From positions 1 to 27,577 of the forward strand of contig JBFKMY010000001.1 in NCBI GenBank assembly GCA_041629615.1: a stretch of 27,577 bases of DNA. The letters are read 5' to 3'. The position numbers were made by a program, and so were the translations under genes. Under the pieces are notes generated by a model. The model was not told where the DNA came from, searched no databases, and was given only the letters and a program-made list of their open reading frames with translations. This DNA comes from Thermodesulfovibrionia bacterium (GTDB taxonomy: Bacteria > Nitrospirota > Thermodesulfovibrionia > UBA6902). Position 1 is the first letter of the stretch. Every line of letters starts with the position of its first letter. Shown here in pieces: positions 1-2,888 of this stretch.

Positions 1-2
1 AC

Positions 3-1289
3 CTCTGCAATAACTGTTACGAAAAACTCTGCGTGAATGCCGACGGGAATGTATATCCCTGTGCGTCGCTCAATGGGGATAATAACTTTAATGCCGGTTC
101 TGTGCGCAAAAAACCTCTCAGGGACATATGGCTTCATTCAGGTGCCATGGAAAGAGGCAGGAAAAACAGTGTACAGAACAAAGTGGAATGCAGGGAATGT
201 TACCTCAAGTTTTTTTGCGGAGGAGGATGCACGTCTCACAGTTATTACGCCTCGGAGGTAGATACCGGCGCAGGTTCCGTCACAGCCCTTGATCCCTATT
301 GTTCGACATATAAGCAGATGTTTGAGGACATTATCTGGGAACTGGCTTCTGAAGGCGTTACCCCCCAATACGGAGAAGGGTATACGCCGCCCCTTGTCTA
401 TAATGCCATGGATTCAAAGCTGCCCGGACATCTTGGTGCCGGGATCAGGTCCATTGATAAGAATTTTGAAGTGGGCTGCTATCATTGCTCATGCGTATTG
501 TCCGTGGATGTTGAAGATGATGAAGAAGTATGTAAACCTGAGATTAAGGGGCATGTGACCAGGACGGTAAAAAAGAAATTTTCCAAGGCTGCATATAACC
601 CTGTTGCTGATTACTATTGCCCTACCGGATACGATCCCAAAGACCTGGCACACATCCCCAATGAAGTGCTCGACGTTTCCTACGGATGCGGGAATCCGGC
701 GGCCCTGGCTGACATTCAGGAGGGTGAAACAATTGTTGATCTGGGTGCAGGGGGCGGCATTGACTGCTTTATTGCCGCCAGGAAGCTCGGAAAGGAAGGC
801 AGGGTAATCGGCATAGACATGACCGATGAAATGCTTGAAAAGGCAAGGGACGGTGCAAAGAAAGTTGCCCTCAGTCTCGGATACGACATTGTCGAATTCA
901 GGGCCGGCAATATCATGGAATTGCCTGTTGAGAGCTGTTCCGCTGATCTGGTGATCTCAAACTGTGTTATCAATCTCACAGAGGACAAGACTAAAGTACT
1001 GGAAGAAATATATCGAATATTAAAGCCGGGAGGAAGGTTTATTATTTCAGACATTGTTTCCGATAAACCTGTCCCCGGATATTTAAAGAGAGACAAGGAG
1101 TTATGGAATGCCTGCCTGTCAGGGGCCCTCACTGACCGCCATTTTAAGGATGTTGCCGAAAATGCCGGGTTTTCCAGGGTCAATATGACCAGAAATTACC
1201 TTTATAAAAAGGTTGAATTCATAGAGTTTTATTCCATAACATTAACGGGCACAAAACCGATGAAGGTCGGCTGCGGATGCAGTGCATGA
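3..1289 (+). CDS. 5'-truncated radical SAM/SPASM protein fused to a C-terminal ArsM-like (arsenite methyltransferase-type) SAM-dependent methyltransferase
   Basis: The frame is open from base 3 (LCNNCYEKLCVNADGNVYPC), so GTG at 33 is not the true start. It has a SPASM-type CX2CX5CX3C (CRECYLKFFCGGGC) plus a distal DPYC, followed by ArsM signatures YYCP, SYGCGNP, the SAM motif VDLGAGGGIDC, VISNCVINL and WNACLSGAL. The rSAM core itself lies outside the window and is inferred from the SPASM domain. Confidence 0.85.
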   Translation, partial: LCNNCYEKLCVNADGNVYPCASLNGDNNFNAGSVRKKPLRDIWLHSGAMERGRKNSVQNKVECRECYLKFFCGGGCTSHSYYASEVDTGAGSVTALDPYCSTYKQMFEDIIWELASEGVTPQYGEGYTPPLVYNAMDSKLPGHLGAGIRSIDKNFEVGCYHCSCVLSVDVEDDEEVCKPEIKGHVTRTVKKKFSKAAYNPVADYYCPTGYDPKDLAHIPNEVLDVSYGCGNPAALADIQEGETIVDLGAGGGIDCFIAARKLGKEGRVIGIDMTDEMLEKARDGAKKVALSLGYDIVEFRAGNIMELPVESCSADLVISNCVINLTEDKTKVLEEIYRILKPGGRFIISDIVSDKPVPGYLKRDKELWNACLSGALTDRHFKDVAENAGFSRVNMTRNYLYKKVEFIEFYSITLTGTKPMKVGCGCSA

Positions 1290-1337: not shown

Positions 1338-2819
1338 ATGAGAGTAACACTGGTAAATGCCCAGGTTTTAGACGGCAACAATGTTGTGCCCCCTTTAGGG
1401 CTGATGTATATTGCGGCCGTATTGGAAAAGTCGGGACATCAGGTGCAGATATTTGATGCTGACCCTGAATATCAGGCCACGATGATGAAGGAGATCAAGG
1501 AATTTAATCCGGAACTGATTGGATTGAGTTTCCTGACCGTTGCGTATCAGAGGGCATTTAATCTCTGCAAGGCCTTGAAAAAGGAAATGCCTGACGCGAC
1601 ATACTGTGCAGGAGGGGTGCACACGACTGTCAAGCCCCGTGAGACCTTAAAGGAGTTCGACCTCGATTTTATCGTAGTCGGAGAAGGGGAAGATACGGTT
1701 GTTGAGGTGTGTGAGAAGCTGGGAAGGAAAGAAGGCCTTGCAGGTGTCAATGGGGTCATGTACCGTGAAAAGGATGAAATTGTTGAAAACGAGAGACGGG
1801 ACATGATCAAGGACCTGGATTCCATCCCCTTTCCTGCCAGGCACTTAATCGATATGAAACCCTACCTGAAGCCGCCGGGAATTATACGCGGATATGCTGA
1901 AAAGAACCAGACAACGATCGTCACAAGCAGGGGGTGCCCCTTTAAATGTATCTACTGCGGCAGCCATAACATATTCGGCAGAAGGACAAGAAGGCGTTCG
2001 GTGCAGAATGTTGTAGATGAGATTGAATACCTGGTGAAGGACTATGATATGAAGGGTATCTATTTCTGTGATGATACATTTACTCTCAGTTCCCGGTGGG
2101 TCAAGGAATACTGTGAAGAACTGAAGAAGAGAAATCTGAATATTAAATGGGCCTGCCAGTCAAGGGTTGACCAGACCGACAGGGAATTGATGACGAAGAT
2201 GAAAGAATCGGGGCTGGTGCAGCTTGACTTCGGTGTGGAGAGCGGCTCTGAAAAAATACTCAAGGTACTGGGCAAAGGCGGCGCAGGAGACAGGACTGCA
2301 CAGATAAAACAGTCCTTTAAACTGTGCAAGGAACTCGATATCAGGACGCTGGCAACGTTCATAATAGGCAATCCCGAGGAAACCCGTGAAGACATCGATG
2401 AAAGTTTCAAAGTGGCTAAGGAGATCGACGCTGACTACACGGCCTTTTATTTCCTGACCCCCTATCCCGGAACGGACATCTATACCATGGCCATTGAAAA
2501 CGGATGGCTGGACCCGAATATCCCCTTCTCGGAGATATGGGCGCACAGGCAGCCTGAGCTTCCCTTAATGGCCATAACCTTCGGAAAGGAAGAACTCAGG
2601 GACATACGCAGACATCTGCAGAACCAGTTCTTTGTAAAAAATTATCTCAAGGCCTCAAGCAACATCAGTTTCTACTCGATACTGTTCAGTATTATTTTCA
2701 GGCATCCCAAAGTTATTCTCGATTGTCTGGGAAAATTTATCAGGACCCGCAGGATAGACTATATTGTGGAGACCCTCAATGCAGAATACTGGCGGATGAA
2801 AAAGTACGAAGGGGCCTGA
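1338..2819 (+). CDS. Cobalamin-binding radical SAM protein (class B methyltransferase-like)
   Basis: N-terminal B12-binding-type domain (PPLGLMYIAAVL...GGVHTT...GEGE). CxxxCxxC SRGCPFKCIYC at 1935-1958, plus DDTF, GVESGS and TPYPGT motifs. Purine-rich RBS GAGGTAGGA upstream. Confidence 0.9.
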   Translation: MRVTLVNAQVLDGNNVVPPLGLMYIAAVLEKSGHQVQIFDADPEYQATMMKEIKEFNPELIGLSFLTVAYQRAFNLCKALKKEMPDATYCAGGVHTTVKPRETLKEFDLDFIVVGEGEDTVVEVCEKLGRKEGLAGVNGVMYREKDEIVENERRDMIKDLDSIPFPARHLIDMKPYLKPPGIIRGYAEKNQTTIVTSRGCPFKCIYCGSHNIFGRRTRRRSVQNVVDEIEYLVKDYDMKGIYFCDDTFTLSSRWVKEYCEELKKRNLNIKWACQSRVDQTDRELMTKMKESGLVQLDFGVESGSEKILKVLGKGGAGDRTAQIKQSFKLCKELDIRTLATFIIGNPEETREDIDESFKVAKEIDADYTAFYFLTPYPGTDIYTMAIENGWLDPNIPFSEIWAHRQPELPLMAITFGKEELRDIRRHLQNQFFVKNYLKASSNISFYSILFSIIFRHPKVILDCLGKFIRTRRIDYIVETLNAEYWRMKKYEGA

Positions 2820-2823
2820 ACAG

Positions 2824-2862
2824 AAAACAGACATAAAAAATACACATAAAGAATAAACAGAA
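2824..2862. repeat. 3 x 13-nt imperfect A-rich tandem repeat
   Basis: AAAACAGACATAA / AAAATACACATAA / AGAATAAACAGAA, with 11/13 and 10/13 identity between neighbours. Confidence 0.5.
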
Positions 2863-2888
2863 AGGGCGCTGCAGCGCCCTTTCTGTTT
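2855..2888. terminator. Bidirectional intrinsic terminator (perfect 34-bp palindrome)
   Basis: AAACAGAAAGGGCGCTG|CAGCGCCCTTTCTGTTT has a GC-rich core with A/T tracts on both sides and lies between convergent stops at 2819 and 2889. Confidence 0.85.

Follow-up and report, generated by a model that had tools for sequence, protein, structure and literature searches.

We analyzed a 27,577-nucleotide stretch of DNA, hereafter the window, which forms the start of contig C1 (JBFKMY010000001.1) in the assembly of an uncultured Thermodesulfovibrionia bacterium of the phylum Nitrospirota (GCA_041629615.1; 489 contigs, 91% complete, 5.3% contamination). At its left edge lies the 3′ part of a gene in which an enzyme of the radical S-adenosylmethionine (SAM) type with a SPASM domain is fused to a methyltransferase of the ArsM type. 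Reading frame +3 runs uninterrupted from the edge of the contig to a stop codon at 1287–1289, and its translation (3..1289, plus strand) comprises 428 amino acids. An earlier note on this sequence had read a SPASM Cys pattern and an ArsM-like methyltransferase in one frame here, and both domains were indeed found by profile with the motif complete. Over its whole length of ~802 amino acids the fusion protein is ordered as a PqqD/RRE-like region, radical SAM, SPASM, linker, ArsM-type methyltransferase and Cys tail. The features at this end of the window are as follows.

3..1289, plus strand: 3′ part of the fusion gene, the C-terminal 428 codons and stop of a gene for ~802 amino acids
3..350, plus strand: SPASM auxiliary Fe-S domain, residues 1–116, from Pfam and NCBIfam matches and the Cys motif
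351..551, plus strand: linker, residues 117–183, with a Cys/His motif of C159, H161, C162, C164 and C177
552..1253, plus strand: ArsM/AS3MT-type class I methyltransferase domain, residues 184–417, from profile and structure matches
1254..1286, plus strand: C-terminal tail, ending G-C-G-C-S-A
1338..2819, plus strand: B12-binding radical SAM gene, 493 amino acids, with CxxxCxxC in 'GCPFKCIYCG'
2855..2888, no strand assigned: GC-rich hairpin with a perfect 15-bp stem and a 4-nt loop, likely a bidirectional terminator

The earlier note had placed the N-terminal core of this protein outside the window. By searching the assembly with a full-length homologue we found two further pieces of fusion gene, on contigs C9 and C414. 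The C9 piece (C9:16080–17189) supplies 370 codons from a start codon at C9:16080 to '...VRVRTKRG' at the contig end. It carries the PqqD/RRE-like region, the same region as on C414, and the CxxxCxxC motif on which the earlier note had made its reading depend, present as C151-x3-C155-x2-C158. Homologues go on with R-K-N-D-L-C-N-N-C after the point at which C9 ends, and because the window opens at the last two bases of the Asp codon in this run, the gap that separates C9 from C1 amounts to ~10 nt. Over C9 and C1 combined the gene order is a divergent GAF/sigma-54 activator, the fusion, the B12-binding radical SAM gene, an M50 peptidase, DUF2062, ThiL and Lon, and an intact relative (L043) has the same flanking genes in the same order and orientation. 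An assembly chimera was considered and rejected on the grounds of >120 full-length homologues of like architecture and a C9/C1 gene order equal to that of intact relatives. The C414 piece (L002:1–1875, minus strand) belongs to a second copy of the fusion and covers residues 1–625, with DNA 80% identical to window positions 1–754. Its N-terminus matches Pfam PqqD (PF05402; 36.6 bits with a cut-off of 23.4) and is followed by Radical_SAM and SPASM. The 3′ part of this second copy was not found in the bin, and the copy probably represents either a co-binned related strain, the contamination estimate being that given above, or a paralogue.

The methyltransferase domain, which contains the SAM-binding glycine motif VDLGAGGG, is matched by Pfam Methyltransf_31 with an E-value of 9.4e-34. 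Its best NCBIfam model is NF008823, 'arsenite methyltransferase' (E 3.9e-74, profile positions 38–235 of 272), at 249.6 bits compared with a cut-off of 263, and four other fusions score 222–253 bits on the same model. Stand-alone ArsM-like proteins of Nitrospirota are ~50% identical to the domain. The four Cys codons that the earlier note had picked out at nucleotides 618, 687, 963 and 1113 correspond exactly to C206, C229, C321 and C371. In order to place these residues, a profile of 16 methyltransferase domains of the family was aligned with the CmArsM sequence (PDB 4FR0, chain residues 21–281, E 4e-57) and counted residue by residue, whereupon they fell on CmArsM C44, C72, C174 and C224. 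All four Cys named in the earlier note thus map onto the ArsM arsenic site, and the fold agrees. In an AlphaFold model built with 28 homologues the domain has a predicted local distance difference test score (pLDDT) of 85–96, and the 13 best Foldseek matches in the PDB are all As(III) methyltransferases (CrArsM, CmArsM and human AS3MT) with E-values from 3e-21 to 8e-19, root mean square deviations of 2.1–3.7 Å and 32–38% identity. Generic methyltransferases come next in the list at ~1e-13, such that the As(III) enzymes lead by about 8 orders of magnitude. Judged from its sequence, the ArsM domain is complete with all four As(III)-site Cys residues.

The fusion is not confined to this genome. 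More than 120 proteins of 792–822 residues are alike over the whole architecture at 64–88% identity, and where named they belong to Nitrospirota or Thermodesulfovibrionia. A set of 400 genomes from the phylum shows the full-length fusion in 9/9 sampled genomes of the window's family plus two sister families, a second fusion clade at ~38% identity occurs in seven other families, and in one family the radical SAM and methyltransferase halves are separate genes. An exhaustive profile-free search gave ~45 clusters (50% identity) that align over both halves. When one genome per species was scanned with the radical SAM half, 80 loci were returned, among them loci from Nitrospirota, Chloroflexota, Thermodesulfobacteriota, Spirochaetia, anammox Planctomycetota, Acidobacteriota, Elusimicrobiota, Wallbacteria, Omnitrophota, Nitrospinota, Hebobacteria and Desulfurivibrio dismutans AMeS2, and the fused methyltransferase is present in 61 of the 65 complete focal open reading frames (ORFs). 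Some variants of about 1000–1080 amino acids have an added C-terminal DUF5714 domain, and in one protein of 711 amino acids (P0136; L064 8001–10136) the domain order is reversed, the ArsM-like domain preceding radical SAM-SPASM; the genes that immediately precede this variant are GT2, C_GCAxxG_C_C, LPG_synthase_TM and DedA. The cultured isolate D. dismutans AMeS2 encodes a 1118-amino-acid variant (L144 9992–13345) of radical SAM, ArsM-like and C-terminal MbdU-like domains, the last of which resembles 'metal-binding double selenoprotein MbdU' at 135 bits. No NCBIfam model exceeded its cut-off on four diverse family members; no paper on a radical SAM-SPASM/ArsM fusion was found in the literature, and the papers on ArsM, ArsS and ArsL do not mention one. 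The family is widespread and uncharacterized, covered neither by a paper nor by an NCBIfam model.

We then compared what is conserved in an alignment of 61 fused proteins from >10 phylum-level groups. The radical SAM CxxxCxxC motif is present in all 61, the four ArsM Cys residues are kept in 59–61 of them, and a linker Cys (C164 in window numbering) is again found in 61/61. Within the linker motif only C164 and the nearly invariant H161 are conserved throughout the family; the AlphaFold model has pLDDT <50 at residues 127–184, which permits no structural reading of the motif's geometry. Nearly all fusions end in a Cys-rich tail, mostly terminating in CC, of which G-C-G-C-S-A is the window's version. 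The SPASM domain follows a different course. In the window, Pfam SPASM (PF13186) matches residues 2–67 with an E-value of 5.5e-9, TIGR04085 scores 51.2 bits with a cut-off of 27, and the canonical 7-Cys pattern is complete (C10, G15-x4-C20, C63-x2-C66-x5-C72-x3-C76 and C100), with C2 and C5 as two additional Cys residues in the region. These SPASM Cys residues are kept in 12/12 proteins of the Thermodesulfovibrionia clade and mostly lost elsewhere: outside this clade Ser and Asp take the places of C394 and C450 (full-length numbering) in essentially 49/49 proteins, and the CxxCx5C triad is retained in 20 of the 49. In the window's clade all seven SPASM Cys residues are present, along with a Cys-Cys pair at the N-terminus and a further three Cys residues in the linker. 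The constant features of the family are hence the SAM-cleaving cluster and the arsenic-type thiols rather than the auxiliary clusters typical of peptide maturases, with the window's clade as the exception. This pattern, in which the radical SAM core, ArsM Cys, linker Cys and Cys tail are conserved while the SPASM Cys are lost, indicates that selection acts on arsenic-type thiols and not on peptide-maturase clusters.

The B12-binding radical SAM gene starts 48 nt past the fusion stop codon and is the sole conserved neighbor of the fusion in the window's clade, where it is found at 12/12 loci. Its orthologues (74–90% identity) occur only in genomes that have the fusion and always adjoin it, with paralogues of 36–40% identity as the next matches, which makes this gene an obligatory partner specific to the window's clade. 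Of the B12-binding radical SAM models, those nearest to the protein are BchE, HpnJ and lipid-type ones, though its scores lie far under their cut-offs; it scores 79.5 bits on the ArsL model NF040542, whose cut-off is 450, and is without a Cys tail. The hairpin at 2855–2888 sits between this gene and the convergent M50 peptidase gene and is likely a bidirectional terminator that closes a two-gene unit of fusion and partner. On the other side the divergent GAF/sigma-54 activator adjoins the fusion in only part of the clade; no sigma-54 promoter for it is evident by eye, no pattern search having been made. In the second Nitrospirota clade, at 38% identity, the fusion has no conserved neighbor. 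Three upstream regions of the fusion (L013, which is C9, 15584–16079; L003 7607–8000; L002 1876–2131) share a conserved sigma-70-like block, TTGTTA, 18 nt and TATAAT, together with a short conserved motif ATAATAyTAACATCAGG, while the long leaders after the block are not conserved. No Rfam match to a riboswitch or other RNA element was obtained at E ≤ 1 in C9 15400–16200.

Gene neighborhoods in phyla other than the window's are of a different kind. The fusion lies beside genes of TIGR04282/TIGR04283, families that NCBIfam names 'arsenosugar biosynthesis glycosyltransferases', in at least 15 loci from nine groups. The families that recur near it are these.

15 loci: TIGR04282 (DUF2064), 203.7 bits with a cut-off of 134
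14 loci: PHO4 transporter
13 loci: TIGR04283 (GT2), 237.9 bits with a cut-off of 182
12 loci: MerA-like disulfide reductase
9 loci: DedA
9 loci: thioredoxin-like protein
6 loci: DUF547
6 loci: DUF3047
5 loci: FMN reductase
4 loci: AhpD-like protein

A TIGR04283 gene is also directly upstream of the fusion at one locus of the window's own clade (L078), and an ArsP-family permease is encoded two genes downstream of the fusion in one relative. Canonical ArsS is found in none of the fusion loci surveyed. In the sequence recovered from five genomes with the fusion beside TIGR04282/TIGR04283 there is no match to the ArsS model TIGR04167 over its cut-off; of the partial matches, the fusion scores best. 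At two loci, one from Thermodesulfobacteriota (L082 14848–15078) and one from Spirochaetia (L084 15651–15881), and at no others, FmdB-type zinc-ribbon proteins of 76 amino acids whose C-terminal tails are Cys-rich (GCGC...CGC) are encoded a few genes from the fusion.

Three known systems combine or resemble parts of this architecture, and a fourth carries a related domain. Earlier work describes a four-Cys As(III) site in ArsM, As(III) bound by ArsL through a C-terminal Cys tail with the As–C bond made by radical SAM chemistry, and As–C formation by ArsS with the 5′-deoxyadenosyl radical (preprint 10.1101/2024.02.01.577332). The arsenosugar pair of ArsM and ArsS is like the fusion in that an As(III) SAM methyltransferase is combined with a radical SAM enzyme, and in other phyla the fusion adjoins genes of TIGR04282/TIGR04283, the accessory families of that pair, as well as DedA, MerA-like, DUF547 and DUF3047 genes. 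The pair differs in that the fusion scores 74 bits on TIGR04167 (cut-off 300), lacks the DUF3641 domain and belongs to the RRE/SPASM lineage, holds both activities on one chain and, in the window's clade, is partnered by the B12-binding enzyme. In the arsinothricin pathway, ArsL forms an As–C bond on thiol-bound As(III) before ArsM methylates, and ArsL has a C-terminal Cys tail as the fusion does. However, the fusion has no match to NF040542, its tail motif differs from the RCCLKC of ArsL, and no arsQ-type or AST genes are nearby. The RRE-radical SAM-SPASM maturases (CteB 5WGG, SkfB 6EFN, AlbA, MftC and PqqE) share the domain order of the fusion's N-terminal 500 residues, whereas for the fusion no precursor peptide was found, the SPASM Cys residues are mostly lost family-wide and an ArsM domain stands at the C-terminus. 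Finally, the ArsM-fusion selenoproteins NF041537 (ArsM/AhpD), NF041536 (ArsM/DUF2284) and NF047649 combine an ArsM-type domain with another module, of redox or metal-binding type, that has paired Cys/Sec motifs; their models score 159–172 bits on our domain with cut-offs of 460–575, and here the partner is instead a radical SAM enzyme and there is no selenocysteine.

As the likeliest function, at about even odds, we propose organoarsenical synthesis: the fusion would methylate As(III) and form or tailor an additional As–C bond, a reading drawn from residues, fusions and neighbors. As(III) or methylated As(III) would be caught by the vicinal thiols of the Cys-rich C-terminal tail and handed on to the ArsM domain with its four-Cys site, where it would be methylated in an SN2 reaction with SAM. 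Next, a second SAM would be cleaved by the radical SAM domain, which would attach a radical derived from SAM to the arsenic on its thiols, in the manner of ArsS and ArsL, or might alternatively tailor the organoarsenical's carbon skeleton. One more methylation, or a rearrangement, could fall to the B12-binding partner in the window's clade. The resulting organoarsenical would be of the arsenosugar or arsenolipid type.

Several observations weigh against this proposal. The names of TIGR04282 and TIGR04283 rest on co-occurrence with ArsS and not on assays, the two families being named for arsenosugars because they accompany that radical SAM enzyme. The arsenosugar-type context is found mainly in relatives of ~30–40% identity and at roughly a quarter of the loci; neither TIGR04282 nor TIGR04283 is on C1 or C9, and no ars resistance genes are adjacent to the fusion. 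This genome, moreover, has a canonical ArsS elsewhere (C146:563–1468, 390.8 bits compared with a cut-off of 300). TIGR04283 and TIGR04282 also occur as pairs on both C306 and C358, C71 holds a third TIGR04282, and C147 holds a 353-amino-acid ArsM-like gene. With ArsS, these pairs and other ArsM-like genes already making up a standard arsenosugar-type set, the fusion and its B12-binding partner are therefore an addition and not a replacement. The complete SPASM Cys set of the window's clade is that of peptide maturases, and a PqqD/RRE-like domain is detectable by BLAST in 51 of the 61 fusions; such domains normally bind peptides. As a separate observation, C358 also holds an ArsM-like ORF whose Cys pattern is different and which contains a TGA codon in frame, possibly for selenocysteine.

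The SPASM set and the PqqD/RRE-like domain bear on the first alternative, namely that the fusion is a maturase resembling those of ribosomally synthesized and post-translationally modified peptides. Here the RRE-like domain would bind a peptide or protein tail that is rich in Cys and encoded at another site, the radical SAM/SPASM part would cross-link it and the ArsM-like domain would methylate a thiol or load a metalloid. Besides the PqqD domain, with its above-threshold Pfam score in the C414 copy, and the full SPASM set of the window's clade, the relationships of the radical SAM half speak for this alternative: its nearest solved relatives by sequence are CteB and SkfB, and its best NCBIfam models are StsB, MftC and AlbA, although all score far under their cut-offs (StsB 163 compared with 625). 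A precursor, however, did not come to light among ORFs of 15–110 amino acids within 1.5–4 kb of the gene, as no small ORF is conserved in 21 Nitrospirota loci, where all that recurred were shadow ORFs within the B12-binding radical SAM gene, or in 65 multi-phylum loci, where nothing was common to more than three; this makes 86 loci in all. A brief look on contigs C75, C139, C147 and C5 likewise revealed no cassette of Cys peptide, radical SAM enzyme and ArsM-like methyltransferase in this genome. The absence of any conserved neighbor in the 38%-identity clade and the loss of auxiliary-cluster Cys residues in most of a family with invariant ArsM Cys residues further argue against a peptide maturase, which we consider unlikely. 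The earlier note had left two readings side by side, an arsenic enzyme on a single polypeptide and a peptide or metal(loid) maturase, and had named neither the PqqD/RRE-like domain nor the obligatory B12-binding partner. The arsenic reading is the one favored, by inference, because the ArsM Cys residues and Cys tail are invariant while the SPASM Cys residues are not, because relatives have TIGR04282/TIGR04283 neighbors in genomes from which no ArsS was recovered and because no precursor peptide was detected; the maturase reading fares less well. The extra metal-binding-type domains and the occurrence of both domain orders among the fusions were also counted for arsenic.

In a second alternative the substrate is a soft metalloid other than arsenic or a chalcogen (Sb, Se, Te or species of sulfide/persulfide), with methylation, volatilization or cofactor chemistry as the outcome. 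It draws on the scores of the selenoprotein fusion relatives NF041536, NF041537 and NF047649 on the domain, on neighbors that are thiol/disulfide redox proteins (MerA-like, thioredoxin-like and DsbD) and on the narrow miss of the NF008823 cut-off. Yet by sequence as well as by structure every one of the best matches is an As(III) methyltransferase with exact arsenic-site Cys residues, the accessory genes are those tied to ArsS, and ArsP and PHO4 (arsenate/phosphate-type) transporters are nearby, so that a substrate other than arsenic seems quite improbable to us. Least convincing is a metalloid-free modification of a lipid, sugar or cofactor together with the B12-binding partner, in which the ArsM-like Cys would be structural or redox residues only: the BchE-, HpnJ- and lipid-type affinities of the partner, distant as they are, and the GT2, LPG_synthase_TM and DedA membrane genes near some relatives would fit it, but the four arsenic-site Cys residues and vicinal-Cys tail are invariant over phyla and the partner, being restricted to one clade, cannot define the core function of the family, and we hold this to be very unlikely.

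Returning to the organoarsenical synthase, we tentatively suggest, with somewhat more doubt than belief, that the family may represent a third independent radical SAM lineage, drawn from the RRE/SPASM peptide maturases for the making of As–C bonds and fused to ArsM for the hand-over of thiol-bound arsenic. Thermodesulfovibrionia would have kept the auxiliary clusters in functional form and gained the B12-binding partner, and the product would be unlike both arsenosugars and arsinothricin.

To our knowledge, ArsS and ArsL are the only radical SAM routes to carbon–arsenic bonds known so far. If the proposed function is correct, the fusion would provide a third, located on one polypeptide with a methyltransferase, and would offer a compact enzyme in which to study the hand-over of arsenic between SN2 and radical SAM chemistry. 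Genes of this kind are at present labeled 'methyltransferase domain-containing protein' or 'PqqD family chaperone'. They are commonly found in groundwater, sediment and soil anaerobes that have not been cultured, including Nitrospirota, Acidobacteriota, Elusimicrobiota, anammox Planctomycetota, Chloroflexota and others, and an organoarsenical synthase in these organisms would change the metagenome-based prediction of arsenic cycling and organoarsenical production in anoxic habitats.

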